A stretch of 64,000 nt of DNA, taken from NCBI RefSeq assembly GCF_006345805.1, contig NC_042999.1, forward strand, positions 117,924,001 to 117,988,000, read 5' to 3'. The notes beneath the pieces are model-generated. The model did no database searches, had not been told where the DNA came from, and saw only the letters and a list, made by a program, of their open reading frames with translations. Made by a program: the position numbers and the translations under genes. This DNA is from Octopus sinensis (lineage: Eukaryota). The first letter of the stretch is position 1, and each line of letters begins with the position of its first letter. Shown one piece after another: positions 22,034-60,470 of the stretch.

Positions 22034-22069
<36 letters not shown>

Positions 22070-23270: not shown

Positions 23271-23301
<31 letters not shown>

Positions 23302-23310
23302 CACACACAC

Positions 23311-23344
<34 letters not shown>

Positions 23345-23882
23345 CGACGGGCTTCTTTTCAGTTTCCGTCTACCAAATCCACTCACGAGGCTTTGGTCGA
23401 CCCGAGGCTATAGTAGAAGACACTTTCCCAATGTGCCACGCAGTGGGGCTGAACCCGGAACCATGTGGTTGATAAGCAAGCTACTTACCACCCCTGCGCC
23501 TATACATTGTATACATTTATTATATGCATACCACCCCCCACGTGATAATGCATGTGTATACCATATATACGAAGGATGCTGAAGGGTTCCTGCTTTAAGG
23601 GTGTCGCGAAAGGCCTGGTTGGAATCCCATCCGTCCGAGTTCTTTTACAGGACTTAGATGAAATTGAAGCACCGCTGCAATCAGTGTGTGAATTTGAGTG
23701 AGGATTATGCTGAATAAAATCATAATTAACTGATTCTCTTGAATTTTCTTTTACCCAAGCCAGGAACTTTTCAGCACGCTCTCGTATATGTGTGTATGTA
23801 TGTGTGTTTGTGTATTTCGATTACGCGCACACATATATGAACATGTCTACAATACCAACACACACAGACACATGTATGCGTG

Positions 23883-23961
<79 letters not shown>

Positions 23962-24174
23962 AGAGTTCACGAAAAAACAAAAGACGAAGACAGGTGGTGT
24001 ATAAAACAAACAGATGTATTAGTATAACGCTCAGGAATAGAAAAAGTCTTTTACGTTTCGAGAAAGAGACAGAAAAAAACAATGTGAGAAAAAATGTGTG
24101 TAGTGGCTACCGATCTATCAGGGCGACTGATATATATATATATATATGTGTGTGTGTGGTGTGTGTATATAATA

Positions 24175-24269
<95 letters not shown>

Positions 24270-25347
24270 ATATTTCTCCTGTTGATTCTCTGGCACGGAA
24301 ACACCTTAATTCAGTGTCTGAAATTTGGCAACCGAAATTGCTGAGCACATTGGTGTAGAAACCAGACTTAAGACATTTACTACTCGAAACTTAAGAAATT
24401 TCGAACTGTTTATACTGAATAGCTTTGCTTTACATCGGCTACGTTGCATAGAAACCGATATACTCGAAAGGTCCAGCTGACGAGAGAATACATATGTGCC
24501 TGTATACATCCGTGTACCCCAAACAAACTGAATTTACTCAAGCGCAACATAAAATGTATTATTGTAAAATGTTTACCTTCGTAAATTCTCCAGATTACTT
24601 CAGTTTACATTGTATATATACATATAAATGTATATAACAAATAGTAAATAAAACATATGCATATATACAAACATATATGTACGTACCTACATCTATATGT
24701 ATATATACATGCATATATGGGTACAGGACACACCAAAAAAAAAACGTCGATCACAATGAGAAACGAAAACATAAACAAAACCAAGGAAATGGACATTTTT
24801 CTAAACAACGAAAAAAAAAAAAGACATACAACACAAGGAACATTCCCCTTCTTCAGCCGCCTCTGTTTTTTCGTTGTTTAAGAAAAATGTCCATTTCCTT
24901 GGTTTTCAGTTTATGTTTTCGTTTTTCATTGTGTTCGACGATTTTTTTTTTTGGTGTCCTGTACCCATATATGCATGTATATATACATATAGATGTAGGT
25001 ACGTACATATATGTTTGTATATATGCATATGTTTTATTTATTATTTTGTTATTATATGATAGAACGCATGCATCCACTTCTAAGTAAGTTGTTGAATCGT
25101 TAACTCCTGCACGCATTTTTTTTTCTCTCCTTGCTTCTCTCCGTGTTTCTTTCTGTGTATCTTTCTGTTGAAGAGCGCAGGCTCGAAACGTAAAAGACTG
25201 GTTTTATTTCTATTCCTTAACCCCATACTAATACAATTGTTTGTTTGTACTCCACCTGCCTTCGTCTTTTGTTTATTTTCGTAAAGCTTCCCTTTATATA
25301 TGTGTATATATATATCTATATATATGAATGTGTTTGTATGCATATAT

Positions 25348-26986: not shown

Positions 26987-27376
26987 ATATATATATATAT
27001 ACCGAAGAGATTTGTTTTTAATCTATCTGTACCTATGTTTATGTCACCCAAATAGCTTAGATACACTTCACAAAATCCATTTGTTCTTTGCTTAATCGTT
27101 CACTTCCCATACATGCATGCACACACCTAAGCAGCTATGTATTTCAAATCAACAAACAGGTAGGCAAACATCTTAAATTACCACTCCCAGATCTCATTAT
27201 TCGTTTAATCCCCACATTGAAGTAAACAAATTTATCAAGAATTCTTGACTTCCTGACACTTTGCTACAAACAGCTCACATTTCTTTACACATTCATTCAT
27301 ATATACATACATACATGCATACACAAACGCGCACACTTACACACTCATGCACACATACACACACACACGCACACAC

Positions 27377-27413
<37 letters not shown>

Positions 27414-27434
27414 CACATATATATATATATATTA

Positions 27435-28935
27435 CACACCCAGGACCACGCTAATAGCTAAGGAGTGGAATTTAGGTCTTCTCGGTTTTCTATGAATCGA
27501 ATTGATAAAGCTTCTCCCATCTGGTTTGCACACTATCGAAAAACCATTGTTGTTTTCATTATTCTGTGTAACGTCCTTTACTTCAGACTATTCAGTTTTG
27601 GGGTGAACTACGCTAATAGCTTTTGAATGAAAATAGCCCATCTATACATTTTTATCCATATTAAGCATACATTGAGTATATATTTAACTGAAAGCCATAA
27701 TAATATAATAACATTTATTGGCATAATGAATTACTTAGCCCCATGAGCACCCCCCCCCCCAAAAAAAAAAAACAATCAGATTGTGGGACCTCCAAAACTG
27801 TGACATCTAGGGATTTAAGTAATATTGGCCGCAAGTTACGTGGGAAACCTGGATAAACAAGCAAAGCCATTTCACCGCTCCCGGACCTCCTCGTGTACCG
27901 AAAACCACCAGAAATCGCATCGTCAGGACAATGGCTTCCATGCGAGAACCTTTGAAACTGCCTCCTCATAGGAGTTTGAGGCTTCAATGGGCCCAAAATT
28001 ACATGACGTTAGACTTGAGTTGTGTTCTGATCACTAAAGAAACCAGGGTGATCCTTGACGAAACTAACGGTTGGGCAAATGGTTGGGTCTATTTTAGAGA
28101 TGAGCGTCACCAACTTTTACGACGTCAACAACAGGGTGGAGGAGTCATCTTGTGGGCTGGTATCATTGGGGACAGACTTGTTGGCCCATTCAGGGTGCCT
28201 GAAGAGGTTAAAGTGATTGCAGCTGCCTTCTGCAATCTCCTGAAGGAGGTCTTGGATCTCTGGCTAGATGACATACTGCTGTCACTTCTAAGGAATCTCG
28301 AATTCATGCATGACAACACTCCCTCTCATTCTACTAGGACCACCCAAATATTCCTAGGGTTTTACGGTATACAATGTGAAAGGTTGATGGTGTAGTCGCA
28401 AGCATCTCCAGATCTCAAACCTATCGAAAATATTTGGTCCATCATTAAACAAGATGTTTATGACGATGGACGCCAATTTACGTCGAAAAATGTCATATGG
28501 GCGACCATGAAAGCTGCAGCAGAGGCAGTACAACCTGCTACTATTAAGAAATTGACTAATAGGGTTTTTGAAGTTATCTATCAAAATGGCGCTCATGTAG
28601 CTAAATAATTCATTATGACAATAAATGTTATAATATTATTATGGTTTTCTCTTAAATATACACTCAATGTGTGCTTAATATGTATCACTACCCTTCATTT
28701 TATAAAAAACAAAAAAAGGTATTGATGGTCTATTTTCATTCAAAAGCTATTAGCGTGGTTCACTCAAAAACTGAATAATCTGAAATAAAGGACGTTACTC
28801 AGAATAATGAAAACATAACAAGGGTGTTGCCAAGGGTGTTGCAAGCCAGCTGGGAAACGTTTTATCAAAATCGATTCGCAGAAAACCGAGAAATCCTAAT
28901 TTCACTCCTTAGCTATTAGCGTGGTTCTGGGTGTA
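27435..28935 (+). mobile_element. Tc1-like DD37E (TRT-like) transposon with long IR/DR-type TIRs; transposase pseudogene at ~27800-28605
   Basis: TA-flanked TIRs over 200 bp, each with two copies of ACYACGCTAATAGCT. Peptide RRQQQGGGVILWAGIIG...FMHDNTPSH...*SQASPDLKPIENIW has 37 residues between D and E. Confidence 0.85.
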
Positions 28936-31910: not shown

Positions 31911-33418
31911 CTGCAGAGAGATTAAACTAACGGTTGAAAAACGGCGTCTTGCTAACCGCATACTGCTGTCAAAGATACTACGTATAATCCCCAGATAATA
32001 TTAAGTTTAGAGCTACATTACTTTAAAACAGCTTTAACATCCTACCAACCGTATTTTACAGCTTTATCTGGGAAATTGGAGACTCATTAAAAGTTTTCAA
32101 AGAATTTTTTTCCTTTAGATCACTCAATCTATTCTAATGAGTAAAAGAATATTTTTATATATTTTCTTAGTTATAAATGTCACATTAAAATCTATGCTTC
32201 TTATCAAACGACTTGACCGCCGTGTATTTCAACTTACTAGAAATAGTTGCCAAATCACCACCAAATAACTACCAACTACAATAACCACGCACTACACTGC
32301 GGTCTTTTAAAAGGTACACACTGTATAATGTTCAATGAATTTTGTTTAAAAATCAAATGGAGTCGATTAGAAAACCATTGATAATCAGCCTTTTTGATCT
32401 GGACTGTATAGGGCTAAACAGCAACAATAACAAAACCGATGAGAAAAGTCAAGGAAGCCAAAAGTTGAGCATCTGCGTGTTCCACACAATCTGCAAGGAT
32501 GACTAGCCACTTGTCCCTTAAATTTTACACTATCGTCTTAGAAAATGTTACGACATATTAAACAATGTAGTACTATATTACATTATGTTTGAATATAATC
32601 AATAATAGTTTGGTTTGATTAGGTCTAGTATCAAGGTAGCTAACTACTACCACTAGAACGTCTACAACTATGACAACTATGAATGCAACAACTAAAACAC
32701 AATTTTCTAACAGTAGTACAGGACCACAAATTTTAGGTGATCAAGCATTCATTCTAGGAGTCTTTTATCGACCCTCGTAGGAATGAAGAGTCTTGTGCTA
32801 CAATGACAATAATTCTAATCTAGTGCATTTTAAGCTTTGGGGTTGAAATAAACTAATCCAGTAATATGTAATGATAATCTTTATATATATAAAACTGAGA
32901 ATATGTATCTGTCTGTCTGTCTGTCTGTGTGTTTCCCTAAAACTTGAGAACTACACAACCAATTTCATTCAAATTTTACACATGCCTTACTTAGGGTCCA
33001 TGTAGTTTCGTGGGCAAAAAGAAATGTTCAACTTTTTGCCTAGGGCGAGCCCATAGCAATATCATATCTTCTCCACTATTTCAGTAGTACATGTTAAAAG
33101 TAAACAAAAAACATTTCTCTATTTTATGTCAGATACTTTCACTTTAACATAAAAAATAATAATAACAATTGAAGTATATGTAGTAAGTTTAATTAAAATC
33201 AAAAAAGTATAATATAATCGTAACATAAAAAAAGTAAAAATAGCAATTGGTATAAAATTGCATCCGTGACTTGAACTGAAAAGTGGTTTCTCATGAATGG
33301 GAATAATTAAAAATAAAATTAGCCTGCAGAAATGGAATAGTCCAGATGGATAATAAAAGATTAAATAAAGAAAAACTATTGTCTATAAAGTATACAATGT
33401 AGAGAAAAAAGAGATTTT

Positions 33419-35193
33419 CACCCACGGCGGAAATACCCAAGTGTGTTGTTATTGTGACTAGACGGAATTTTGTTGTGTAATTGATAATTATCGCGCGAGG
33501 CGTTGCCTCTCGTGTGGAAACCTTCCGAAGAGGTGAATTGACCCTCTAGTCATGGCGACTTACGCGGGGGTCACGGGAAAAAGAAGTAATGATTGCTCGA
33601 TAGTCGTGAAGGATGTTTTCTTTGAGAAGAATAAACTCAAAGAATACGAAAAGCTATTCAAAAGGGAGGGTGATAGCGTGAAGCTAATCCCCCCCGCGAA
33701 AGCAAAAGAGGACAAAGAAAACAAAACTGTAACGTATAGAACCCAGGACAAAAGTACAAAGAAACTGGCAAGAGTGGAGATAGCAGAGATCGAAAAATGT
33801 CTGGGAGACATAATGGATAAATCGACCTACGTGAGTAGAGGAAAAAAATTTGGTACGGTGGAGGTGAGATGTGCAACGGAAGAAATTGCAGCCTCACTGG
33901 CTACCACTGTTCTAAGAGGCGGAAACATTCATAATGTGGCCCTCATACAAGGGAAGAAGAGGGGTCCGGGTTAAAATCCCGATATACCCCCAGAAATAAA
34001 AACAGAGTGGCTGGCACAGCTATTCTGGGAGCAGCAGAAGAGGAAGTGGAGGTGGAATCCTTTAAGGAGTCCAATGCAGTAAACTGGAGAGGATATGGGT
34101 AGAACTGTGTTTGATGGCCAAAAAAGAGGACATTGAAAGGTTCCCCTACAGAATAGAAATCGAAGACGAGAAAACCCTCAGTGTAATTGTAGAGGGTAGA
34201 AAGCCAAACTGCTACTTGTGCGGGACAAGGGGGGCACATTAAAAAAGAGTGCCCGCTATACGAATTCATAGCGGAGTACGAGCAGGAACTTGAAGAAAGG
34301 AAGAATAAGGTAAATGAAAAAGAAAACATAGAAAAGGAGACAAAACAACAAGAGAAGGAAATAATAAGTCAACGAAAGAAAAAGATATAAAAGAAAAAGA
34401 AGAAATGGAACCAAAACAGAGTCAGGAAAAGAAAAAGGAAAAGAAACAACAGGAAAAAAACAAGAGAGAGATCAGAATCAACGAAAGAAAAGACGGACGC
34501 ACACAAAAAGAAAAAGAAAAGGAACATAAAACACGAGAGAAAGAGAGAACAGACAAAGACCAAAAGACAAGAGAAGGAGAGAAGAAAGAAGAAAAGAAAG
34601 CAAAAGAGAGAAAGAGAGAAACAAAGAGAGGAGAACAAGGAAGAAGTAAGCCCGAAAAGAAAAACGAGGGAAAACGTAGGACGAAAACAAGATTACTACA
34701 AGTTAATAACCTTCCATTTCACCCCTGAAATGAAGGAATTGACATGTAGTACGGAGGGACATGTGTGGGTCAACAGGATGACTGATCAGTGCAGGAGATG
34801 CTCTGATCCCCGAAGAAAGAGTCGCTGAGTTCCTCAGAGCAGCTGGAGAGAGTGTAATTTTTTACACGGGTGTTCGAATGAAGAGCGGCTGCCTGAGGGC
34901 TCAGTGATTGACTTTAGAGACTTGAAAGGTATTATGGAATACGTATAAAATTGTGAGAAGAGAGAGAAGAAAGAAGAAAAAAAAAAAAAAGAAAATATTG
35001 TAAAATATATGTGACGAAAATGTAACCTCTCGATTTCGGGGATCGAGTGGGCATTTACATCTCATTGTAAATATTCTTTCATATGTCATTTTTACTTTTA
35101 ATTTTTTCCTTTTCTTGTCATTTCGCTTTCTTAATTTAAGTTCCTCGATTGTATTGTCCCCTCTATGTTCGCCCCTTGTGGGTAATAATAAAA
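33419..35193 (+). mobile_element. ORF1-only non-autonomous retroelement, family A, unit 1
   Basis: Junction motif, structured 5' UTR, one ORF1-like gene and the shared 47-nt tail. Confidence 0.85.
33552..34948 (+). CDS. Family A ORF1/Gag-like protein: CCHC knuckle, E/K-rich linker, C-terminal domain (frameshifted)
   Basis: MATYAGV...RGKKFGTVEVRC...VEGRKPNCYLCGTRGHIKKECP...DLKGIMEYV*, assembled across indels and copies. Homologous to ORF1 at 44724. Confidence 0.75.
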
Positions 35194-36980
35194 CACCACG
35201 GCGGAAATTTACCCAAGTGTGTTGTTATCTGTGACTAGACAGGAATTTTGTTGTGTAAATTGATAATTATCGCGCGAGGCGTTTGCCTCTACGTGTGGAA
35301 ACCTTCCGAAGAAGGTGAATTGACCCTCTAGTCATGGCGACTTACGCGGGGGTCACGGGAAAGAGAAGTAATGATTGCTCGATAGTCGTAAAGGATGTTT
35401 TCTTTGAGATAAGAAAACTCAAAGAATACGAAAAGCTATTCAAAAGGGAGGGTGATAGCGTGAAGCTAATCCCCCCCGCGAAAGCAAAAGAGGACAAAGA
35501 AAACAAAACTGTAACGTATAGAACCCAGTGACAAAAGTACAAAGAAACTGGCAAGAGTGGAGATAGCAGAGATCGAAAAATGTCTGGGGGAGACATAATG
35601 GATAAATCGACCTACGTGAGTAGAGGAAAAAAATTTGGTACGGTGGAGGTGAGATGTGCAACGGAAGAAAAATTGCAGCCTCACTGGCTACCACTGTTCT
35701 AAGAGCGGAAACATTCATAATGTGGCCCTCATACAAGGGAAGAAGAGGGGTCCGGGTTAAAATCCCGAATATATACCCCCAGAAATAAAAACAGAGTGCT
35801 GCAACAGCTATTCTGGGAGCACAGAAGAGGAAGTGGAGGTGGAATCTTTAAGGAGTCCAATGCAGTAAACTGGAGAGGATATGGGGTAGAACTTGTTTGA
35901 TGGCCAAAAAGAGGACATTGAAAGGTTCCCCTACAGAATAGAAATCGAAGACGAGAAAACCCTCAGTGTAATTGTAGAGGGTAGAAAGCCAAACTGCTAC
36001 TTGTGCGGGACAAGGGGGCACATTAAAAAAGAGTGCCCGCTATACGAATCATAGCGGAGTACGAGCAGGAACATGAAGAAAGGAAGAATAAGGTAAATGA
36101 AAAAGAAAACATAGAAAAGGAGACAAAACAACAAGAGAAAGGAAATAATAAGTCAACGAAAGAAAAAGATATAAAAGAAAAGAAAGAAATGAACCAAAAC
36201 AGAGTCAGGAAAAGAAAAAGGAAAAAGAAACAACAGGAAAAAACAGAGAGAGATCAGAATCAACGAAAGAAAAGACGGCACACAAAAAGAAAAAGAAAAG
36301 GAACATAAAACACGAGAGAAAGAGAGAACAGACAAAGAACCAAAAAGACAAGAGAAGGAAGAAGAAAGAAAAGAAAGCAAAAAAGAGAGAAAGAGAAACA
36401 AAGAGAGGAAACAAGGAAGAATAAGCCGAAAAGAAAAACGGAAAAACGAGGGAAAACGTAGGACGAAAACAAGATTACTACAAGTTATAACCTTCCATTT
36501 CACCCCTGAATGAAGGAATTGACATGTAGTAGTAAGGAGGGACATGTGTGGGTCAACAGGATGACTGATCAGTGGCAGGAGACTGCTCTGATCCCCGAAG
36601 AAAGAGTCTCGCTGAGTTCCTCAGAGCAGCTGGAGAGAGTGTAATTTTTTACACGGGTGTTCGAATGAAAGAGCGGCTGCTGAGGGCTCAGTGATTGACT
36701 TTAGAGACTTGAAAGGTATTATGGAATACGTATAAAATGTGAGAAGAAGAGAAGAAAGAACAAAAAAAAAAAAAAAAGAAAATATTGTAAAATATATGTG
36801 ACGAAAATGTAACCTCTCGATTTCGGGGATCGAGTGGGCATTTACATCTCATTGTAAATATTCTTTCATATGTCATTTTTACTTTTAATTTTTTCCTTTT
36901 CTTGTCATTTCGCTTTCTTAATTTAAGTTCCTCGATTGTATTGTCCCCTCTATGTTCGCCCCTTGTGGGTAATAATAAAA
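35194..36980 (+). mobile_element. Family A unit 2 (ORF 35334-36735, frameshifted)
   Basis: Near-identical to unit 1. Starts CACCACGGCGGAAA. Confidence 0.85.
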
Positions 36981-38800
36981 CACCACGGCGGAAATTTACC
37001 CAAGTGTGTTGTTATCTGTGACTAGACAGGAATTTTGTTGTGTAAATTGATAATTATCGCGCGAGGCGTTTGCCTCTACGTTGGAAACCTTCCGAAGAAG
37101 GTGAATTGACCCTCTAGTCATGGCGACTTACGCGGGGGTCACGGGAAAAGAAGAAGGAATGATTGCTCGATAGTCGAAAGGATGTTTTCTTGAGAAGAAA
37201 ATAAACTCAAAGATACGAAAAGCTATTCAAAAGGGAGGGTGATAGCGTGAAGCTAATCCCCCCCGCGAAAGCAAAAGAGGACAAAGAAAACAAAACTGTA
37301 ACGTATAGAACCCAGGACAAAAGTACAAAGAAACTGGCAAGAGTGGAGAGATAGCAGAGATCGAAAAATGTCTGGAGAACATAATGGATAAATCGACCTA
37401 CGTGAGTAGAGGAAAAAAATTTGGTACGGTGGTACGGTGGAGGTGAGATGTGCAACGGAAGAAATTGCAGCCTCACTGGCTACCACTGTTCTAAGAGCGG
37501 AAACATTCATAATGTGGCCCTCATACAAGGGAAGAAGAGGGGTCCGGGTTAAAATCCCGAATATACCCCCAGAAATAAAAACAGAGTGGCTGGCAACAGC
37601 TATTCTGGAGCAGCAGCAGAGAAGAGGAGTGGAGGTGGAATCCTTTAAGGAGTCCAATGCAGTAAACTGGAGAGGATATGGGGAGAGTGAACTGTGTTGA
37701 TGGCCACAAAAGAGGACATTGAAAGGTTCCCCTACAGAATAAAATCGAAGACGAGAAAACCCTCAGTGTAATTGTAGAGTAGGTAGAAAGCCAAACTGCT
37801 ACTTGTGCGGGACAGGGGGCACATTAAAAAAGAGTGCCCGCTATACGAATTCATAGCGGAGTACGAGCAGGAACTTGAAGAAAGGAAGAATAAGGTAAAT
37901 GAAAAAGAAAACATAGAAAAGGAGACAAAACAACAAGAGAAAGGAAATAATAAGTCAACGAAAGAAAAAGATATAAAAGAAAAGAAAGAAATGGAACCAA
38001 AACAGAGTCAGGAAAAGAAAAAGGAAAAAGAAACAACAGGAAAAAAACAAGAGAGAGATCAGAATAAAGAAAAAGAAAAGACGGCACACAAAAAGAAAAA
38101 GAAAAGGAACATAAAACACGAGAGAAAGAGAGAACAGACAAAGAAAAAACCCAAAAAAAAAAAAAAAAAGACAGAGAAGGAGAAGGAGAAGAAGAAAAGA
38201 AGCAAAAAAGAGAGAAAGAGAGGAACAAAGAGAGGAGAACAGGAAGAAGTAAGCCCGAAAAGAAAAACGAGGGAAAACGTAGGACGAAAACAAGATTACT
38301 ACAAGTTAATAACCTTCCATTTCACCCCTGAAATGAAGGAATTGACATGTAGTACGGAGGGACATGTGTGGGTCAACAGGATGACTGATCAGTGGCAGGA
38401 GACTGCTCGATCCCCGAAGAAAGAGTCGCTGAGTTCCTCAGAGCAGCTGGAGAGAGTGTAATTTTTTACACGGGTGTTCGAATGAAAGGCGGCTCTGCCT
38501 GAGGCTCAGTGATTGACTTTAGAGACTTGAAAGGTATTATGGAATACGTATAAAATTGTGAGAAGAGAGAGAAGAAGAAAGAAAAAAAAAAAAAAAAAAG
38601 AAAATATTGTAAAATATATGTACGAAAATGTAACCTCTCGATTTCGGGGATCGAGTGGGCATTTACATCTCATTGTAAATATTCTCATATGTCATTTTTT
38701 ACTTTTAATTTTTTCCTTTTCTTGTCATTTCGCTTTCTTATTTTAAGTTCCTCGATTGTATTGTCCCCTCTATGTTCGCCCCTTGTGGGTAGTAATAAAA
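36981..38800 (+). mobile_element. Family A unit 3 (ORF 37120-38553, frameshifted)
   Basis: Near-identical to unit 1. Tail variant GGGTAGTAATAAAA. Confidence 0.85.
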
Positions 38801-40607
38801 TCCCACGGCGGCGGAAATTTACCCAAGTGTGTTGTTATCTGTGACTACTAGACAGGAATTTGGTTGTGTAAATTGATAATTATCGCGCGAGGCGTTTGCC
38901 TCTACGTGTGGAAACCTTCCGAAGAAGGTGAATGACCCTCTAGTCATGGCGACTTACGCGGGGTCACGGGGACGGGAAAGAGAAGTAATGATTGCTCGAT
39001 AGTGGAAAGGATGTTTTCTTTGAGAAGAATAAACTCAAAGAATACGAAAAGCTATTCAAAAGGGAGGGTGATAGCGTGAAGCTAATCCCCCCCGCGAAAG
39101 CAAAAGAGGACAAGAAAAACAAAACTGTAACGTATAGAACCAGGACAAAAGTACAAAGAAACTGGCAAGAGTGGAGATAGCAGAGATCGAAAAATGTCTG
39201 GGAGACATAATGGATAAATCGACCTACGTAGAGTAGAGGAAAAAAATTTGGTACGGTGGAGGTGAGATGTGCAACGGAAGAAATTGCAGCCTCACTGGCT
39301 ACCACTGTTCTAAGGCGGAGGAAACATTCATAATGTGGCCCTCATACAAGGGAAGAAGAGGGGTCCGGGTTAAAATCCCGAAATACCCCCAGAAATAAAA
39401 ACAGAGTGGCTGGCAACAGCTATTCTGGGAGCAGCAGAAGAGGAAGTGGAGGTGGAATCCTTAAGGAGTCCAATGCAGTAAACGGGAGAGGATATGGGGT
39501 AGAACTGTGTTTGATGGCCACAAAAGAGGACATTGAAAGGTTCCCCTACAGAATAGAAATCGAAGACGAGAAAACCCTCAGTGTAATGTAGAGGGTAGAA
39601 AGCCAAACTGCTACTTGTGCGGGACAAGGGGGCACATTAAAAAAGAGTGCCCGCTATACGAATTCATAGCGGAGTACGAGCAGGAACTTGAAGAAAGGAA
39701 GAATAAGGTAATGAAAAAGAAAACATAGAAAAAATAGAAAGGACAAACAACAAGAGAAAGGAAATAATAAGTCAACGAAAAAAAAGATATAAAAGAAAAG
39801 AAAGAATGGAACCAAAACAGAGTCAGGAAAAGAAAAAGGAAAAAGAAACAACAGGAAAAAAACAAGAGAGAGATCAGAATCAAACGAAAAGAAAAGACGG
39901 CGGCACACAAAAAGAAAAAGAAAAGGAACAAAAAAACACGAGAGAAAGAGAGAACAGAAAAGAACCAAAAAGACAAGAGAAGGAAGAAGAAAGAAAAGAA
40001 AGCAAAAAGAGAGAAAGAGAGAAACAAAGAGAGGAGAACAAGGAAGAAGTAAGCCCGAAAAGAAAAACGAGGGAAAACGTAGGACGAAAACAAGATTACT
40101 ACAAGCTAATAACCTTCCATTTCACCCCTGAATGAAGGAATTGACATGTAGTACGGGGAGGGACATGTGTGGGTCAACAGGATGACTGATCAGTGGCAGG
40201 AGACTGCTCTGATCCCCGAAGAAAGAGTCGCTGAGTTCCTCAGAGCAGCGGGGAGAGAGTGTAATTTTTTACACGGGTGTTCGAATGAAAGAGCGGCTGC
40301 CTGAGGGCTCAGTGATTGACTTTAGAGACTTGAAAGGTATTATGGAATACGTATAAAATGTGAGAAGAGAGAGAAGAGAGAAAAAGAAAAAAAAAAAAAA
40401 AAAGAAAACATTGTAAAATATATGTGACGAAAATGTAACCTCTCGATTTCGGGGATCGAGTGGGCATTTACATCTCATTGTAAATATTCTTTCATATGTC
40501 ATTTTTTACTTTTAATTTTTTCCTTTTCTTGTCATTTCGCTTTCTTATTTTAAGTTCCTCGATTGTATTGTCCCCTCTATGTTCGCCCCTTGTGGGTAGT
40601 AATAAAA
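38801..40607 (+). mobile_element. Family A unit 4 (ORF 38946-40356, frameshifted)
   Basis: Near-identical to unit 1. Tail variant as in unit 3. Confidence 0.85.
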
Positions 40608-42551
40608 TCCCACGGCGGAAATTTACCCAAGTGTGTTGTGAGTTATTTTTTGCATGTGAAACTTTGGAAAAAAACTGTTAAAAAAAATTGTCAAAAATTG
40701 AATCGCGCGAGGCGTTTGCCGCTGCGTGTTTGAACCTTTTATAGAAGGTGTGTCGACCCTCAAGTCATGGAGACTTACGCGGGGGTCGCCACAACAAAAA
40801 GTGACGAGTCACTTAGAATAAAAGAAGTGTTCTTTAGAAAAGAACAATTGAAGGAATACGAGAAGTTCGTCAAAAGGGAGGGTGACAGCGTGAAGCTGGT
40901 CCCGCCTGTGGAAACAATAGAAGAAAAAAATAACAAGACGATAACGTATAGAACGCAAGATAGAAACACGAGAAAACTGGTGAGAGTGACGATTGAAGAA
41001 ATAGAGAAATGTCTGGGGGACATCATGAAAAAAGCGACTTTTGTAGACAGAGGAAAGAAATATGGTACGGTGGAGGTGAGATGCGCAACAAGGAAAGAAG
41101 TGGCGGCCTCATTGGCTTCCACTGTCCTGAAAGCGGAAAATTTCACCATGTGGCCGACGTATAAAGGAAGACGAGGGGTACGGGTAAGAGTCCCAAAGGT
41201 GCCCCCAAATATTAAAACAGAAATGCTGGTAACAGCCATTATTGGGGCAGCAAAAGAGGAAGTAGAAATAGGGTCAATTAAGGAGACGAACGTTGTAAAT
41301 TGGAAGGGATTCGGAGTCGAGTTGTGGCTGATGGCCACAATTGAAGACATCGAAAGATTTCCCTTCCAAATAGAAATAGAAAACGAAAAAACAATTAGTG
41401 TAATAGTGGAAGGCAGAAAACCGAATTGCTACCTGTGCGGCTCAAGAGGGCACATAAAAAAGGAATGTCCGCTGTATGAATTCACAGCGGAGCAAAAAGA
41501 GACACAAAGTGGAGAGAAGGAAAACGAACACGAGGAAAGAACAGCGAAAACAAGGAAAAGGAAATAACGGAGAAACAACAAGAGAAGGGAAGTAACAGCG
41601 CACTGAAGGAAAATGAAAACAAAGGGAAGAAGATAGTAGAAAAGGAGCAAAATTCACAGGGTGCAGAAGTAGAGGAGAAGGAGCCAAGGCAGAAGCAAGA
41701 GAAAGAAAAGGAAAGTACATTAAAGGAAAGAGAAAAAGCAGGAAAAGAACAAGAGAAGGAACAGAACCAAGAGAAAGGAAAAGATGGTATGCAAAAAGGA
41801 AAAGAAACAACAGGAAAGGAACTTAAGGCACAGGGTAGAGAGACGGCAGACAAAGAGCCAAAAAGACAAGAGAAGGAAAAAGAAAGAAGAGAAAGCAAAA
41901 AGAGAGAAAGAGAGAAACCGAGGGAGGAGAAAAAAGAGGAAGTAAGTCCTAAGAGAAAAACTAGAGAAAACGCAGGTACGAATAGAAAATTCAAATACTA
42001 TGGAACGTTGATCCATCACAAACACTGTGAGGAGATGGAAAATTTAATAAGCGAAACAAACGGATATACGTGGGTCAGGATGGGCACCGAATGGAAAGAA
42101 ACAGGTGCACTCGTCCACGAGAACGACGCCGAGGCGTTCATCGAGGCAGCTGGCGAGAACGTGTTAAAACATATGAAATGCCGACTTCCAAGGTGGCCTC
42201 GAACGATGGAAATTTACTCAGATTTGGTAGACATAATGGAGTATATATAAAAGAAAAGGTATTATGAAAACTTTAATTTGGAAATGATAAAAGAACTTTA
42301 AATTCGGAAAAAAAAAAAAAAAAAAAAAAGAATGTTGAACTTTGTAAAACTTTTTGAAATGTATGTTGAAAATGTATAAAATGTTTTATTTGAAAATATT
42401 GTTGACGAATAAAAATAAATGACGAAATGTAACCGCTCGATTACGGGGATCGAGTGGGCATTGCACCACATTGTACAAACTTCATAATTCATTATTCATT
42501 TTCCCGATTGTATTGTCCCATCTATGTAGCCCCTAGTGGGTAATAATAAAA
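40608..42551 (+). mobile_element. ORF1-only non-autonomous retroelement, family B, unit 5
   Basis: Same architecture as family A with diverged sequence. Tail at 42506-42551. Confidence 0.85.
40767..42250 (+). CDS. Family B ORF1/Gag-like protein (one frameshift near 41532)
   Basis: METYAGV...CYLCGSRGHIKKECP...DLVDIMEYI*. Confidence 0.8.
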
Positions 42552-44488
42552 CACCACGGCGGAAATTTACCCAAGTGTGTTGTGAGTTATTTTTTGCATG
42601 TGAAACTCTGGAAAAAAACTGTTAAAAAAATTGTCAAAAATTGAATCGCGCGAGGCGTTTGCCGCTGCGTGTTTGAACCTTTTATAGAAGGTGTGTCGAC
42701 CCTCAAGTCATGGAGACTTACGCGGGGGTCGCCACAACAAAAAGTGACGAGTCACTTAGAATAAAAGAAGTGTTCTTTAGAAAAGAACAATTGAAGGAAT
42801 ACGAGAAGTTCGTCAAAAGGGAGGGTGACAGCGTGAAGCTGGTCCCGCCTGTGGAAACAATAGAAGAAAAAAATAACAAGACGATAACGTATAGAACGCA
42901 AGATAGAAACACGAGAAAACTGGTGAGAGTGACGATTGAAGAAATAGAGAAATGTCTGGGGGACATCATGAAAAAAGCGACTTTTGTAGACAGAGGAAAG
43001 AAATATGGTACGGTGGAGGTGAGATGCGCAACAAAGGAAGTGGCGGCCTCATTGGCTTCCACTGTCCTGAAAGCGGAAAATTTCACCATGTGGCCGACGT
43101 ATAAAGGAAGACGAGGGGTACGGGTAAGAGTCCCAAAGGTGCCCCCAAATATTAAAACAGAAATGCTGGTAACAGCCATTATTGGGGCAGCAAAAGAGGA
43201 AGTAGAAATAGGGTCAATTAAGGAGACGAACGTTGTAAATTGGAAGGGATTCGGAGTCGAGTTGTGGCTGATGGCCACAATTGAAGACATCGAAAGATTT
43301 CCCTTCCAAATAGAAATAGAAAACGAAAAAACAATTAGTGTAATAGTGGAAGGCAGAAAACCGAATTGCTACCTGTGCGGCTCAAGAGGGCACATAAAAA
43401 AGGAATGTCCGCTGTATGAATTCACAGCGGAGCAAAAAGAGACACAAAGTGGAGAGAAGGAAAACGAACACGAAGGAAAGAACAGCGAAAACAAGGAAAA
43501 GGAAATAACGGAGAAACAACAAGAGAAGGGAAGTAACAGCGCACTGAAGGAAAATGAAAACAAAGGGAGAAGATAGTAGAAAAGGAGCAAAATTCACAGG
43601 GTGCAGAAGTAGAGGAGAAGGAGCCAAGGCAGAAGCAAGAGAAAGAAAAGGAAAGTACATTAAAGGAAAGAGAAAAAGCAGGAAAAGAACAAGAGAAGGA
43701 ACAGAACCAAGAGAAAGGAAAAGATGGTATGCAAAAAGGAAAAGAAACAACAGGAAAGGAACTTAAGGCACAGGGTAGAGAGACGGCAGACAAAGAGCCA
43801 AAAAGACAAGAGAAGGAAAAAGAAAGAAGAGAAAGCAAAAAGAGAGAAAGAGAGAAACCGAGGGAGGAGAAAAAAGAGGAAGTAAGTCCTAAGAGAAAAA
43901 CTAGAGAAAACGCAGGTACGAATAGAAAATTCAAATACTATGGAACGTTGATCCATCACAAGCACTGTGAGGAGATGGAAAATTTAATAAGCGAAACAAA
44001 CGGATATACGTGGGTCAGGATGGGCACCGAATGGAAAGAAACAGGTGCACTCGTCCACGAGAACGACGCCGAGGCGTTCATCGAGGCAGCTGGCGAGAAC
44101 GTGTTAAAACATATGAAATGCCGACTTCCAAGGTGGCCTCGAACGATGGAAATTTACTCAGATTTGGTAGACATAATGGAGTATATATAAAAGAAAAGGT
44201 ATTGTGAAAACTTTAATTTGGAAATGATAAAAGAACTTTAAATTCGGAAAAAAAAAAAAAAAAAAGAAATGTTGAACTTTGTAAAACTTTTTGAAATGTA
44301 TGTTGAAAATGTATAAAATGTTTTATTTGAAAATATTGTTGACGAATAAAAATAAATGACGAAATGTAACCGCTCGACTACGGGGATCGAGTGGGCATTG
44401 CACCACATTGTACAAACTTCATAATTCATTATTCATTTTCCCGATTGTATTGTCCCATCTATGTAGCCCCTAGTGGGTAATAATAAAA
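42552..44488 (+). mobile_element. Family B unit 6
   Basis: Near-identical to unit 5 with a few substitutions. Confidence 0.85.
42710..44190 (+). CDS. Family B ORF1/Gag-like protein (one frameshift near 43568; consensus of units 5 and 6 ~493 aa)
   Basis: The 288-aa and 153-aa ORF-track pieces join when the base present in unit 5 is restored. Confidence 0.8.
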
Positions 44489-44723
44489 CACCACGGCGGA
44501 AATCAATTTTTTGCGTTATTAGTAAGTTGATATATAATTTTGCTCTCGTACTATTATCTCTGTTATTATATACTGTTGATCTACCTGTTTTTGTCTATTG
44601 TTGTCTAACGGACGAAGCCAGCCTTCGCGCGAAGACTTCGCGTTGGTGTTCCCCCCCTCAGTGGGGGAAAACTACAAGTAATTTGGATTTACCAAAGGCT
44701 TGTTATAAAGCCATTTGTTCAAG

Positions 44724-46094
44724 ATGGAGTCCCCCATCACTTATTCGCCCGTGACGAGCGAGGATGAATACCCGGCGTTGTCGCCAAGTAAAAAAGAGGC
44801 GTTGTCGCCAAGAAAAAAAGAGGCGCTGTCGCCGAAGAAAAAAGAGGCGGCGTCGCCCAAGAAAATGGAAAAACCAGTACCAGCATCAACTCCAGCAAAA
44901 AAATTCGCTGAAGTGGCTGGGAAAAAGATCAAAAAAATAAATATAGACAATTTTAAAAAATTTGCAGACTGCGTAAAAAAAGAAGGCACAGAAGTGACTG
45001 TGGCCACAAACATACAAATACATGACGATATAGAGAAAAAAAGAATAATATATAAAACTTACGACACAACGAAAAAAATGATCCAAAAAATCGAAGAAAA
45101 AAAAATAGAGTCTTGTCTAAAACCGTTTATGGACAAAATATAAACAGAGGAAAAAGATACGGCACAGTGGAGGTGCGTTTTACTACGGAGGATATAGCGA
45201 AGAAACTATCGATGGAGCCGATCAAAGCGGAAAACATTGTCTTACTACCATTGTATAAAGGAAAAAGGACGTCAAAAATTTCAATGAACAACATACCGCC
45301 AGAGGCTGATGCTGAATGTCTGGTGGCAGCAGTGATGGTAGGTCTGGAGGAAAAAATAAACATCCTCCAGGCCACAGTGGAGGAAGAGGATTTTTGGAAA
45401 GGCCAAAAAATAGTGATAGCCATTCAGGCGGAGGTGCAAACACTGGAAGAAATTCCAGAAACGGTAAAGATTAGTGAAGACGAGAAAATAACAGTGTTCG
45501 TGGAGGGCAGGAAACCGAGGTGCTTCGGCTGCGGCAAGAAGGGGCATGTAAGGGCGGAATGCCAACCCCAACCCAAACCGCAGGAAGCACCTAAGCCAAA
45601 AGAAAAAGAAGACAATGTGTCACCAGAAGCAGCGTCAGATGGCCCAGAAGGGAAGACTGAAGGTGTGGAGGTGACGGTGACAGCAGAACCAGCGGCGGGG
45701 AAAAAAAAAGAGCGAGGAAAAGATAAATGAGGAGGGGTGGAAAAAAATTATCGGAAAAAAAAAGAAAAACGGAAACCACCCCTCCCAGAGTAATTTTAAA
45801 AAAGAAAAAAGAGTCAATGAACTCATATATGGCCGTAAAGGCAGCAAATAGCAGACTCGGAAACGTGTTGGCAGCCATGGCCAAAGTGGAGAAAGTAGAG
45901 AAAAAAAACGACTTTGTAATTTACAGAATAGGCCGGAAGGATTACGGCGGATAAAGTCAGAATTCTTCCATGACGTAGGCCCACTTAGATTGGATGTGAC
46001 ATCTCCACATATATTCGAGGGCCTACGTCAGACTCCCCCACGAGGCCCAGAAAAAGAGTTAGAAGAACAAGAGAAAACCGAACCACTGATATAA
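44724..46094 (+). CDS. ORF1p nucleic-acid-binding protein (frameshifted)
   Basis: SPxK repeats, RGKRYGTVEVRF, VEGRKPRCFGCGKKGHVRAEC (CX2CX4HX4C). The 3' end is inferred across frameshifts. Confidence 0.8.
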
Positions 46095-46102
46095 GGTAAG
46101 TA

Positions 46103-49100
46103 ATGGATTACATTTATGTTGGTTGTTTGAATGTGCGCGGCCTGGGAGCAGACTGGAAGCAAGGTCGCTTCCTGCATGATATCAGGTCGCGTAATTTAGA
46201 TGTTATTGTTGCTACAGAAACCCGGTTAGAGGGGCCAAGAGGTCTACTCCCGCTGTTTGACGGCTACGAGAGTTTTTTATCTCCTGGCAGTCCTACAGGC
46301 GGGAGTGGGGTGTTGGTCCTATTAAAAAGAAACCGGGTTTCTGAGAAAAAGTTAATTTTTGCAGATCCAGAAGGTAGGCTGGTCGTCATGGATTTGACGT
46401 TCAGTAACGGTAAAGTTATCAGACTGGTTGCAATTTACGCACCCAACCATACAGGGCAAAGTGATTATTTTCGTGAACTAGAAAACTTTCTTGGTACTTC
46501 GCATTCATTAGTGGTGCTAGGAGACTTTAACACAATTTGCAAAGCGGATGTAGATTATGTTGGCTCGTGTCCAGATAGAAAAGGCAACAGTGGCTTCATG
46601 GAACTGCTAAGCCGCTTTGAGCTAGCAGATCCTTATAGGCTGGAATTTCCGAACGCTCCATTGTGGACATGGTCAAACAGCGACGGATCTTCCAGGTCAT
46701 ATTTAGATAGAATACTAATTAGAAAAGTAGACAGTAAAATAGCTAAGTGTCCACAGTTTTACCCGATCAGCTACAGTGATCATAAAATGGTCACTTGTAA
46801 GCTTGACATAGATAAGGTTAAAAATAGAGGATCCGGTTACTGGAAACTTAATACGTCCCTTTTGGCGATTAAGGAGTACAAAGACCGGATTAGGAATATA
46901 ATTCAGAGGGCACTATCTGGTACCATCATTATAACAAATGGTGGTACGCCCTCAAACGAGCCATCAAGTTTGAGTCTATTAGATATAGCATAGGAGTAGT
47001 GGCTAGAGAGGCTAGAAGGGAAACTACTCTAGTTAAGGAATTAGAGGAAGCCATGAAAACTGGCTCTGCGGCTCAGGTGGCGTCCAAGAGACTGGTGTTA
47101 AACCAGCACCTCGAGGCCAAACACATGGGCTGCATTGTCAGGGCTAGAATCCGTCATATGGGATGTGAAGGAATCAACGCCGTGAGATGGGCCCGAGTGG
47201 TGGAAGCTCAGCATGGTAACGATGCCACGATTCGATCTTTGACGAACCAACAAGGTGAGTTGATAAACGAACCCGAGGAGATGTGTGAGGCCTTTCAGGA
47301 GCACTTCGCTCAGCTTTTCGGTGAGTGCGGCGGACTGGATAGGAGGAGGGCCTTTACGGACCTACTCGACGGTCTGCCGCGCTTATCGGGGCGAGATGCG
47401 GAGGGCTGTGAAGGGCCAATCACGCCTGGGGAGGTGTTTGAGGCAATGGCGGACTGCGGCGCGGGCAAGGCGCCGGGTTTGGATGGTCTGCCCTATGAGT
47501 TATATAAGAGTATGCCAGACTTGTTCGGGCACCTACTGGCGGAGGTCTATGCGAACTGGCAGCAGAACGGGCTTATACCCAGATCTGTGCGCCGGGGAGT
47601 AGTGACTCTCGTCAGAAAGGACCCGAGCAAGGGGGAGTGCATTGATAATTTCAGGCCCATCACTCTGCTAAACACAGAGTTGAAGATTTTGGCCAAAGTG
47701 TTATCGAAAAGATTGGCGCGTGTCGCGGATGGTCTGATCGGAGAGGCACAGACATGTGCCGTTCCGGGCAGATCCATTCAGGATAATCTCCATCTAATGC
47801 GGTACACTATAGAGGGGTTTAATAGTGATTCTGGCAAGGGTGGGGCACTGGTCCATTTAGACCAATCTAAAGCTTTTGATAGGGTCGACCATCGTTACCT
47901 GGTGTCTGCCCTGGCACAGTTCGGGCTGAGCCTTGGCTTCCTCAGGTGGATTATCCAAATTTATGATAACATCGACTCGGTAGTTCGGGTGAACGGCTTC
48001 TTGTCGAAGCCGTTCAAAATCAAACGCTCGGTTCGTCAAGGGTGTCCGCTCTCCCCGCTTTTGTACGTGATGGCTCTTGAGCCATTACTGCGAAAACTGA
48101 GCGGCATCCCGAGACAGCCAGGTAATGGAAAATCAGTGTCAGCGTACGCGGATGACATCACCATCATCGTAACCGAAATGGACCACCTATGTAAAGTAGG
48201 CAAGGCCATAGAGGTTTACGAGACGGTGACAGGAGCAAAAGTTAATCGCGAAAAGTCAGTCGGCTTGCAACTCGGCACCTGGAGAGGCAAGTCGATGCCT
48301 CCTGACAGCGTCGTGGGACGTTGGACGGAGGGTCCGATTAAACTGCTAGGGGTCTGGTTCGGTCCAGACCTCCAAATAGAGAAGAATTGGGGCGAGGTAA
48401 CGAGCAAGGTGGCTGCAGTAGCCAAGACCTGGTCTTGGCGGTGGCTATCCCTGAAAGGGAGGGCGGAGGTGGCCATGTGTTTATCGCATCGGTTATCACC
48501 TACCGCCTTTCCGTCGTTCCTTGCCCTGATTCGTGGTTGATCAAGTTGGAAAGACAGCTCTTCTACTTCTTGTGGAAGGGCGGGAAACCACTTGTGAAAC
48601 GCTCTACTTGCTGTCAACAACCGTTAAAGGGTGGGCTAGGGATGCCTTGGCTGATGATGCGCAGACATGCGCTGAGGTTAAGACATCTGTGGCTCTACCT
48701 GGATGGTGAACGGGTGTGGTCTTCGCTAGCAAAACTGATGTTTCCCAAGTTCACTAGTTTCGGTGGATGGGAAACCTGGCTGAATCGTAGATCGAAACTT
48801 GGTACTTGGTACACGGAGTGTCGCAAGGCTCTCCTGCTATTCCGTCGCTCGGGCAACGCCTGCGGTGGGGGTTCCACCACATTCCTCTATAGAGGGTTGG
48901 TAGAGGCGGAATGTGAAGATACCTTGGGGGAAACCCTAGGTCTCGACGATAATCAGCTGGCCAGTCTGTTCCGACGTACGTTCGAGCCGAGGACACTGGA
49001 CAACTTCCAGAAGTCCCTGGCATGGCAATGCTACAGAGGAGCTCTACCTGTTCGGGATAAACTCGCAAGGCACGGTGGCCAAGACAGTCCGATATGTCCA

Positions 49101-49496
49101 AGATGCGGGCGGGATAGGGAAACCGTCCCGCACGCGATTGTTCATTGTCCGGACGTGTCTGAGGTGTGGGTTTATGCCGAACACCTGTTGTCAGGTACAC
49201 GAAGAGTACAGCTGTCGACTGAGTCGATTACAAAAATTGACCCACCGGATTTCCTCGTGAATGAAGGTAAGTTTCGTTTTCTCGTTGTAGTAGCAATTGC
49301 GAAAGAGGTGATATGGAAGACGAGAATGAAAGGTTTACAGTCAGGCAAGTTCATCTCCGGCCCTGGTTTGATGAACTATTTCATCTTTCACCTGAAAAGG
49401 AAGATAGGGCTGGAATGAATATGCCTGACTAGGAGAGTGTATGAAGAACGATGGAAGGATGTAGCACGAAAGTTGCGAGTGAAAGATACAACATAA
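46103..49496 (+). CDS. ORF2p: APE endonuclease, reverse transcriptase, C-terminal zinc finger (two frameshifts; in-frame TGA at 49416)
   Basis: LNVRGL, ETRL, GDFN, YLDRI, SDH (APE). PGLDG, FRPITLLN, DQSKAFD, RQGCPLSP, YADD (RT). CPRC...ETVPHAIVHC (Zn finger). Confidence 0.93.
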
Positions 49497-50239
49497 ATGT
49501 AATACCAAGTGCAACCAAAAGTATCAGTGGGGAGGCGGGGCTCGTGGGGTCCGAGCTAAACCCGCACCCACTCCACCCGTAACGTCTTCCGGTCTGTCCC
49601 ATCATTCGATTTCTGTCCATTTATTGTAATTCATGAAAATTTTTAAAATTCGATTTAGTGTAAAAACCCATTCGTTTGTCTGACCCAGATTGTATTGTCC
49701 CATCTATGTTCGCCCCTTGTGGGTAATAATAAAATCACATGGAGGAAAGCACCTTCGAAAAGTGTCTTGGTGTGACCATGAAAGATATCTAATCAGAGGT
49801 GGTAAATTCGCCACAATAGAAGCAAGGTTCGAGTCAACGGAGCGTACAAGGGAGTACTCGACTCGAACTTGCAAAGTGGAAATATTTTATATCTGGGACG
49901 TAGGACGTCCCGGAAAAAGTTAAATATGCCCCCCTCCCGAAGTAGATGTAGGCTGGATTGTAGCCACATTTCTATACAAGAGGGAGGACAAGATACAATT
50001 GATTGTAATTACAAGAGACGGGCTAACAATTCCAGTCCGTTATATATTTTGAGTATTGTTATCACTAGCGATATCAAGATATAACTTTGTATTTTGTATT
50101 TTATGTGTAGATGTATATATATAGATGTACATGTAATATGTACACATATATATACACACATTTATACATGCACTAGCACTATGACCCGGCAACGACGGGT
50201 CTTTAATGCTAGTAATGTAATATTTGTAGCACTATTTAA

Positions 50240-50341
50240 GGTGGTGAACTGGCAGAATCGTTAGCGCGCCGAGCGAACTGCTTTGCGTTATTTCGTCCGT
50301 TTTTACGTTGTGAGTTCATATTCCGCCGAGATTGACTTTGC
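50240..50341 (+). mobile_element. 5' half of SINE family 2
   Basis: GGTGGTGAACTGGCAGAATCGTTAGC...GAGTTCATATTCCGCCGAG. Confidence 0.75.
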
Positions 50342-50342
50342 A

Positions 50343-50920
50343 TGGATATAGCAACAACATGGTAGACTACAATCTTCGTCTTCACAGTTAAGTCTTTGAT
50401 GTCTTTATCATCCCTTCTCCTCAATCCAAGCCCACCCTCTACGACGGTATGAATGTTCATCGCGAACTACTCTTGGAATTCTCATTTCCATATCGACTGA
50501 AGCAAGCCTATGTACTCGCCCCTTGTTGCAATGATCTTTGAAACTCCTATGGATCAGCCAGGAGTGGATACAGATATCGTTTTGATGAAGTTTGCCATGG
50601 TTTCGCTCAAAGAAACTCACCAATACCAAGCGAATCTCAAAACTCCAATATGCTGATTACAAAGTGGCACCCAGCTATTCATGCTTAGAACTGCAATATG
50701 CAGTCAATAATTTTACCAATGCGTATCACCATTTTGGGCTCACCCTAAATACTAAAAGACCTCAAATACTCATCCTGCCAGCCACGAATTCTGGCTTTCA
50801 GGATTCTAACATCGTCATTTCGGAAACACCATTTGAACAATTTAATCTTTTTGCATACCTTAGAAATATGCTCTCCACCAAATACAATTCTGAGAAAGAA
50901 GTGGAGCGAAGGAATAGGAA
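50343..50920 (+). mobile_element. Decayed RTE-like LINE RT fragment
   Basis: ISKLQYADY...LQYAVNNF..AY..FGLTLN.K...FAYL..MLS resembles RT domains 5-7 of the RTE clade. Confidence 0.6.
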
Positions 50921-60269: not shown

Positions 60270-60470
60270 TGCGAGCTAGCAAAATGTTTAGCACGCTGGA
60301 CAAATGATTAGCGGTATTTTGTCCGTCTTTACGTTCTGAGTTCAAATTCCACCGCGGTCGACTTTGCTTGTCATCCTCTCGGAGGTCGATAAAATAAGTA
60401 CCAGACACGTACTGTAGTCGATGTAATCGATTGACATATCCACCCACCCGAAATTTCAAGCCTTCTGCTT
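60270..60470 (+). mobile_element. SINE family 2
   Basis: TTTACGTTCTGAGTTCAAATTCC..GGTCGACTTTGC..GTCGATAAAATAAGTACCAG. Confidence 0.75.

Follow-up and report, generated by a model that had tools for sequence, protein, structure and literature searches.

Here, we analyzed a 64,000-nucleotide stretch of the Octopus sinensis genome (NCBI RefSeq assembly GCF_006345805.1, contig NC_042999.1, positions 117,924,001 to 117,988,000 of the forward strand), referred to at its full length as the window, which holds a head-to-tail array of seven retroelement units: four of family A and two of family B, both encoding only an ORF1 protein (ORF1p), and one full-length Tx1-like long interspersed element (LINE), termed FL. 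Our comparison of this array with related loci across the assembly makes it highly probable that FL inserts site-specifically into a dispersed Helitron, that ORF1-only lineages use the FL ORF2 protein (ORF2p) in trans and land at the same site, and that the resulting arrays grow leftward. The helper/passenger interpretation put forward in a first-pass annotation of the window is thus supported, although the system is larger than the three members proposed there and also includes the ORF1-only families C, C2, C3 and D (the last near B), as well as a sister system.

The array and its host Helitron

The array is real in the assembly, with all seven units on the + strand, abutting in the order A, A, A, A, B, B, FL at the positions first annotated (Table 1). 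The A units measure 1.77–1.82 kb, the B units 1.94 kb and FL 5.24 kb, and A differs from B by ~20% in a global alignment. As proposed earlier, all units have a 3' tail in common (92–98% identity over the last 47–50 nt), and A and B hold no endonuclease (EN) or reverse transcriptase (RT) remnant, their tblastx matches to FL being confined to ORF1 and the tail. A zinc knuckle was the only Pfam domain identified in the ORF1 piece of B; FL yielded EN, RT and zf-RVT. The single junction motif of the first-pass annotation required amendment: the left end and the six internal junctions carry CACGGCGGAAA, whereas the right end reads CATGGAGGAAA, the original target. The tail folds weakly (-5 to -12 kcal/mol in single folds without shuffled controls), and no structure is claimed for it. 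Small indels break every ORF of the array units in the window; because pairs of A units differ by 47–63 gap openings but just 13–25 substitutions, this excess looks like long-read consensus error. Intact copies at other loci encode 468 aa (A), 493 aa (B), 454 aa (C), 456 aa (FL ORF1) and 1131 aa (FL ORF2; 6 copies).

Pfam revealed a Tx1-type layout in the intact 1131-aa ORF2, comprising an APE endonuclease, an RT and a C-terminal zinc finger, and the empty and filled sites, tail junctions and locus catalogue described below demonstrate a target-sequence preference. The nearest solved protein to FL ORF2 is human L1 ORF2p (E 2.5e-64), with R2 at 3e-25. One of the 120 listed ORF2 homologs is named 'Transposon TX1 uncharacterized 149 kDa protein' (35%), and the best named homolog by identity comes from Argonauta. 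FL is likely to belong to the Tx1 clade.

Arrays on other contigs have ~550 bp of left flank and ~500 bp of right flank in common with that of the window, and the two flanks together represent one element. Helitrons begin with a 5' TC, end in a 3' CTRR with a short hairpin just upstream, and insert between A and T; the ends of the host agree with these features, with TC following an A on the left, and a 6-bp hairpin and CTAG preceding a T on the right. The host is a ~1 kb non-autonomous Helitron (window 32878–50212). Among 30 empty copies, 20 showed the 5' motif and 25 the 3' hairpin, which was also present in 29 of 30 filled ones. The earlier claim that the units stack at one target holds in that a single exact site is used (site 1), but the target itself, a site inside the Helitron, had been overlooked. 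Exact patterns, which give lower bounds, counted 219 empty versus 89 filled copies of site 1. The filled sites are dispersed, and the array is interstitial (at 118 Mb of a 174-Mb contig). No Rfam family matched window positions 32500–50500 at gathering scores, and hence at this threshold the target does not correspond to any known RNA gene. Tandem or partial extra Helitron copies lie side by side at loci L109, L084 and L106, and at C3:173919323 and C3:173920411.

Independent insertion and passage through RNA

Solo B copies at four loci (L123, L126, L141 and L142) are bounded on both sides by a 12-bp target duplication (ACATGGAGGAAA), and 5'-truncated copies with an exact 3' end were found for FL at four loci and for A at two. 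On a Helitron tree, filled copies were unclustered among empty ones, with 16 label changes compared with a shuffled mean of 17.1; 52 of 60 copies were kept, two near-identical empty copies and arms lacking the 3' end having been dropped. Moreover, the median divergence of the right arm was 4.7%, versus 2.2% for the adjacent FL over the same 276 pairs. As the filled Helitrons do not form a clade and are more diverged than the LINE that they carry, the insertions were independent.

Sense-strand A-to-G hypermutation was identified in 4 of the 124 near-complete units examined (36 A, 46 B, 10 C and 32 FL), accounting for 149/166 and 142/160 of the substitutions in two A copies, 65/77 in a B copy and 132/143 in an FL copy. 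An A preceded by G was nearly never changed (4/174, 4/176, 2/181 and 1/124), while 12–40% of those following A or T were. ADAR enzymes disfavor an A preceded by G, and by this preference the context is ADAR-like. The two edited A copies have 68 of ~145 edits in common, but since they differ by 11%, they probably reflect separate editing events. DNA copying does not give rise to editing, so the A, B and FL copies concerned passed through RNA. Together with the solo copies flanked by duplications and the 5' truncations, the hypermutated copies establish A and B as mobile units in their own right that move via RNA. The hypermutated copy at L140 keeps a 467-aa open frame. The edits fall across the purine-rich ORF1 region, pointing to an antisense RNA as partner.

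ORF1 proteins of the passengers

The passengers encode ORF1 proteins of 440–520 aa. A quick 11-protein ORF1 tree resolved three groups, namely FL, A/B/D and C, and the A and B proteins, in their separate clade, are 35% identical to FL ORF1. This identity and the separate clade rule out that A and B are internal-deletion copies of their present partner FL. By a counting method applied to the N-terminal ~235 codons, the ratios of nonsynonymous to synonymous divergence (dN/dS) were 0.12 for A-B, 0.15 for both B-D and A-D, and 0.14 for C-C3, with dS above 1 in these, and 0.09 and 0.25 against the site-2 sisters; the satellite families thus range over 0.09–0.25, at dS of 0.2–2.0. The C-terminal part of the C-C3 pair gave 0.73, with few changes. 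The ORF1 frames have been under purifying selection, and the comparisons point to A, B and D as one old ORF1-only lineage and to C as a second one.

Structural modeling of B ORF1p predicted two RRM-like domains (residues 47–132 and 133–217), a CCHC knuckle and a charged linker, at an overall pLDDT of 54. A Foldseek search with this model retrieved tandem RRMs as the best match (E 3e-5; Z ~8, rmsd 2.6 over 76–79 residues); the C-terminal region was modeled too poorly for a fold search. Human L1 ORF1p was absent among the listed fold matches, which bears neither for nor against homology. FL ORF1 aligns over the RRM-like part of B ORF1p, and the predicted layout of both proteins corresponds to the type I ORF1p, defined by an RRM and a CCHC knuckle in the sections of PMC5203782 available to us. 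All seven B ORF1 homologs carry Octopus vulgaris names. A or B copies with an ORF2 of their own, which the first-pass annotation had held to count against its interpretation, were not encountered: no ORF2 was located behind the A/B-type zinc knuckle in 88 of the first 100 of 289 matches (69 within the fetched DNA and 19 with the tail 0.8–1.3 kb downstream).

Unit order at other loci

The first-pass annotation had proposed comparing unit order across loci, and our catalogue of 41 loci (the first 36 of the 89 listed filled sites, unselected, and five picked for holding arrays) revealed A and B at independent loci, alone and in other orders. The unselected sites comprise 18 with a LINE and ORF1-only units mixed, 10 with FL only and 8 with ORF1-only units only; 23 of them hold at least two units (two sites were not read to their left end). 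The unit adjoining the right arm was FL at 32 of the 41 loci, B at 8 and A at 1. Across the catalogued loci, A stood before B six times and never after it, B before FL 15 times and after it twice, and C before B seven times and after it once; further orders included FL-B-D-B and B-B-B-FL-B-B-FL-FL. Left-end C-type units at L111, L113, L114, L116, L122, L130, L133 and L137 all join the Helitron arm at one base, with ~15 bp of the site removed and no target-like motif remaining. We rejected a strict capping role for C because B stands upstream of it at L124 and because four C2 copies were sampled at sites outside the Helitron.

Of 389 exact tail matches, the first 30 were examined: 25 derive from FL, A or D, and the other five belong to different elements with a similar tail. 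Of the 25 family tails, 22 abut a Helitron arm or the head of another unit (12 of 15 loci on target).

Near-identical duplicate arrays lie ~110 kb apart on C7 (96.72–96.75 and 96.83–96.86 Mb) and on C3 (72.15 and 72.27 Mb), and a gap with a repeated left end occurs at C1 69.556 Mb; these are probably assembly duplications, and the duplicate C7 array (96.8 Mb) was excluded from all unit counts.

Junction variants and array growth

Junction variants were compared between neighboring units, with five of the junction motifs set by hand, leaving out the part of the C1 array left of the gap, C-type units and truncated units. When the downstream junction was a variant, the upstream neighbor from a different family showed the identical variant in 16 of 19 pairs (3.3 expected by within-family drawing, p ~1e-4) and in none of the 19 carried the original motif. 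Of the 49 units neighboring an original junction, 23 retain that motif. Variants thus pass leftwards across families, indicating that arrays grow 5'-ward, and the same test led us to reject the view that the junction motifs are purely RNA-borne family heads. At C4:78.4 Mb, the right-hand target reads CCTGG, which is repeated at every complete unit junction, while a private first base is common to FL and B at C3:72.1 and C8:44.0 Mb, and to A as well at C3; such locus-private bases are harder to explain by a shared era of insertion. Solo FL copies often possess a changed left target copy (L118, L120, L131, L135 and L138), suggesting that a target-like RNA leader can overwrite it.

A second site and a possible history of the target

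Site 1 lies within an ORF1-like segment of the Helitron: the ORF1 profile matched 29 of 30 empty copies, on the + strand only, from ~-75 to +300 nt around the site. A short Helitron form devoid of this segment gave 57 exact matches, and what it is missing (-82 to ~+290, by eye) nearly equals the extent of the ORF1 match. A second site, site 2, lies immediately past this segment and was filled in 17 exact matches. The two site-2 arrays read contain a sister LINE and sister A or B units (81–84% identical); in one of the two, the sister LINE is 91–93% identical to FL in ORF2 and 61% in ORF1. The site-2 system is an older sister system, and the simplest history would place site 2 first, followed by capture of the ORF1 fragment, spread of the long Helitron and use of site 1. 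Weak similarity may reach further upstream (by eye), so the short form may instead have arisen by loss of the segment.

As a tentative extension, which we consider possible though somewhat less likely to be right than wrong, the target may be a landing pad of the LINE group's own making. An older member would have left an ORF1 fragment behind at site 2 of the Helitron, the long Helitron would have multiplied, and the LINE target would have shifted into the fragment together with long-lived ORF1-only passengers, the choice of site depending partly on a target-like RNA leader or on ORF1p and not on the endonuclease alone. This scenario is tenable because the ORF1 match coincides approximately with the segment missing from the short form, the site-2 elements are more diverged, and the ORF2 of the two helpers is 91–93% identical. 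A role of the leader or ORF1p in site choice would also explain why the passengers keep ORF1 while a similar-tailed non-coding repeat lands elsewhere.

Proposed mechanism and alternative explanations

We propose that FL, as a site-specific L1/Tx1-type element, inserts by target-primed reverse transcription at one Helitron site, where a nick would allow priming on the last bases of the tail. A, B and D retain the 3' tail of FL together with a working ORF1 protein and, as their common tail and site suggest, would borrow FL ORF2p in trans and so reach the same landing site. Each insertion duplicates ~12–20 bp of target and would thereby renew a usable site at the 5' end of the new element, so that the next element would usually enter on the left, arrays would extend 5'-ward, and unit order would reflect time order. 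The 5' end would be joined by homology of the RNA leader to the target, which may overwrite part of the left copy, and later arrivals would copy the changed junction.

Several observations weigh against this reading. It is based on the assembled sequence, in which duplicated or gapped arrays (C7, C1 and C3:72 Mb) make unit counts uncertain. Part of window 39500–45500 occurs in 20 of 24 listed public run entries (9 studies), with no RNA run among those listed, and this carries no weight in the argument. Pairs of junctions from one array are interdependent, and insertion in a common era could account for part of the variant sharing; resolution of the Helitron tree is poor, with 2 of 49 inner branches starred. 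Three of the 25 sampled family tails are off target, and three further off-target units were seen elsewhere; off-target copies mostly still start with ACAT or a near match. A dispersed short interspersed element (SINE)-like repeat of ~230 nt and another LINE end in a similar tail and sit elsewhere, so that the site is not determined by the tail on its own and there is a second helper. Among five C2-type tails sampled, four belong to C2 copies located outside the Helitron, and the end of the fifth resembles, by eye, the ORF2 of another LINE. It may thus be that C relies on a second helper and only partly enters these arrays.

One such LINE end, at L204 (C1:145386861-145388060, - strand), resembles the last residues of FL ORF2 (by eye), carries the AAAGAAAT tail form and occupies a non-Helitron site; it is a candidate for the helper used by the C families and by the SINE-like repeat. 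The latter, also with the AAAGAAAT tail form, is located at L176:1323-1545, with partial copies in the window at 10322–10476, 16820–16946, 50251–50341 and 60279–60430. GGTAT directly follows 5 of 10 sampled ends, several of these apparently inside another copy of the same repeat, which was not matched to a named octopus SINE.

Among the alternatives, single-family runs such as AAAA and BB could have arisen mainly in one event, by RNA template jumping, a read-through transcript or later unequal exchange, on top of site-specific insertion. Units do form runs of near-identical copies, array-only bases are common to at least two units (seven at C4:78.4, five at C1:69.5 and three in the A units of the window), and C-B-FL recurs at five loci. 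We nevertheless find a one-event origin unlikely, as single-unit differences exceed shared ones in 14 of 15 family runs (though much of this may be sequencing error), a hyper-edited B lies between unedited B units, the C-B-FL loci carry different FL variants and junctions, and junctions bear locus-private bases. It is less probable still that A and B are mobilized by another autonomous element, be it an unseen relative with an A/B-type ORF1 or a second LINE with the AAAGAAAT tail. The low ORF1 identity to FL, the related tail at L204 and the restriction of the knuckle survey to 88 of the first 100 of 289 matches would accommodate such a helper, but A, B and D possess the tail form and exact site of FL, their diverged sisters (A/B) sit with its sister at site 2, and the 16 knuckle loci picked by hand as divergent or solitary all had no endonuclease behind them (one of them read in the wrong orientation, with a 96% match to B).

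Helitrons are known to carry captured DNA, and both arms are common to all arrays, so a Helitron might have captured the array once and spread it as cargo with no site-specific insertion at all. Array contents, however, vary by locus, filled and empty copies are interspersed, the arms have diverged further than the cargo, with distances that are not positively correlated (rho -0.25), and 5' truncations delete differing parts of the left arm. Hitchhiking on the Helitron was rejected on the divergence and the scatter, and the cargo explanation is largely refuted and deserves very little credence. Equally little attaches to an assembly artifact or a purely local duplication: the A units are heavy in indel noise, the C7 arrays are near-identical duplicates and the C1 left end is duplicated at a gap, but 41 loci with different flanks and contents, alleles with an empty site, and target duplications are at odds with it. 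Insertion of FL and its passengers at a common site with leftward growth remains the reading that we favor.

Features of the window

The features of the array and its host are collected in Table 1. Elsewhere in the window, a decayed + strand reading frame spans 27300–28500, with HDN and PDLKPIEN motifs reminiscent of a Tc1/mariner transposase; a 154-aa piece of it had no Pfam match. A local direct duplication ~2.2 kb apart occupies ~21900–25100, with similar ORFs at 22488 and 24677.

Table 1. Features of the array, its host Helitron and hypermutated copies (window positions unless a locus is named)
Feature	Position	Strand	Remarks
Helitron left arm, 5' end TC after A	32878..33417	+	common to all arrays
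ORF1-like fragment of long Helitron form, upstream part	33344..33417	+	ORF1 profile match
A1, ORF1-only unit	33423..35196	+	ORF1 33552-34948, indel-broken; left junction with target-like motif
A2, ORF1-only unit	35197..36983	+	
A3, ORF1-only unit	36984..38803	+	
A4, ORF1-only unit	38804..40610	+	
B1, ORF1-only unit	40611..42554	+	ORF1 40767-42250, frameshifted
B2, ORF1-only unit	42555..44491	+	ORF1 42710-44190, one frameshift; predicted two RRM-like domains, CCHC knuckle, charged linker, C-terminal region (domain model from intact B copy)
FL, full-length Tx1-like LINE	44492..49734	+	ORF1 from 44724; ORF2 (APE endonuclease, RT, zf-RVT) 46103-49496; both frameshifted here
Shared 47-nt 3' tail of FL	49688..49734	+	also terminates each A and B unit
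Site 1, right-hand copy of target duplication (ACATGGAGGAAA)	49737..49748	+	sequence of the empty site; 12-mer flanks solo B copies on both sides
ORF1-like fragment, downstream part, Helitron right arm	49738..50023	+	ORF1 profile match
Site 2 (ACA|ATTCCAGTC), empty in window	50026..50040	+	used elsewhere by diverged sister system
Helitron 3' end	50183..50212	+	6-bp hairpin (50183-50201), CTAG, then T
Hypermutated copies (A, A, B, FL)	L140 reverse strand 2398-4150; L132 2472-4226; C8 ~44.004-44.006 Mb; L125:4210-5800		

Comparison with known systems

Each part of this system has a precedent, as far as the portions of the sources at our disposal describe them. The Tx1-Mar LINEs of crocodilians and their SINEU partners target a non-autonomous Mariner at two hot spots, where tandem copies sandwich the target duplication (Kojima 2015, PMC4494074); hitchhiking was considered and rejected in that study as well. 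The octopus elements are alike in that a Tx1-like element enters a non-autonomous DNA transposon at two sites, partners share the target and tandem copies surround the duplication. They differ in that SINEU are non-coding SINEs with small nuclear RNA-derived heads inside a Mariner, while the octopus passengers are protein-coding ORF1-only lineages inside a Helitron, at a site within an ORF1-like fragment. Xenopus Tx1 (Tx1L), likewise an APE-type LINE, inserts into the non-autonomous DNA transposon Tx1D, but this host is a piggyBac, and the accessible text of PMC4494074 mentions neither ORF1-only partners nor mixed arrays for Tx1D.

Non-autonomous LINEs that retain ORF1 include HAL1 (L1), Ag-Sponge (CR1) and HeT-A (Jockey), a list from 2018 that, in the parts available, names no Tx1 case (Kojima 2018, PMC5786205, PMC5753468). 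These encode only ORF1p and depend on an autonomous partner, as the octopus units would do. Unlike HAL1-type elements, A, B and D are not recent deletions of their helper, given the low ORF1 identity and the tail as the only part that aligns well, and they are site-specific and stacked.

The head-to-tail mixing of autonomous and ORF1-only elements resembles that of HeT-A, TART and TAHRE. For HeT-A and TART, the 3' end of the upstream unit promotes the downstream unit, and Gag directs targeting. The octopus arrays, by contrast, are neither telomeric nor of the Jockey clade, occupy an endonuclease target with duplications and have no evident host function. According to the sections available of a recent telomere study, ORF1-only telomeric elements are widespread, form clades and give rise to further ORF1-only families (Genome Res 2026, PMC13534243). 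That such arrays have a counterpart in a second LINE clade, spread over hundreds of internal sites that occur both empty and filled, suggests that stacking at a specific site in itself favors ORF1-only passengers, and the question of why ORF1 is kept in cis becomes testable by swaps. For the study of site specificity, a LINE that is young, retains intact copies of ORF2 and has a defined target also offers a tractable system. The hypermutated copies, for their part, indicate that heavily edited RNAs entered the octopus germline genome by reverse transcription, their reading frames remaining open. Should the landing-pad scenario be true, the arrays would constitute a dated record of the coevolution of LINE, Helitron and passengers and of germline ADAR editing, and a non-telomeric counterpart of HeT-A/TART.

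An octopus repeat study of 2026 lists 13 recently active L1-Tx1 families, its main text, where available, mentioning neither ORF1 nor nesting (PMC13282606); its repeat library may already hold these units. Across the literature searched, with Repbase and most subscription papers outside reach and with partial further background from PMC3747384, PMC4758252 and PMC4640811, we found no ORF1-only Tx1 passengers, Helitron target or edited retrocopies of this kind, nor the combination of parts that are individually known from Tx1-Mar/SINEU, HAL1 and HeT-A. The octopus system works like Tx1-Mar with passengers, and its arrays look like those of HeT-A/TART, but it is a member of neither.

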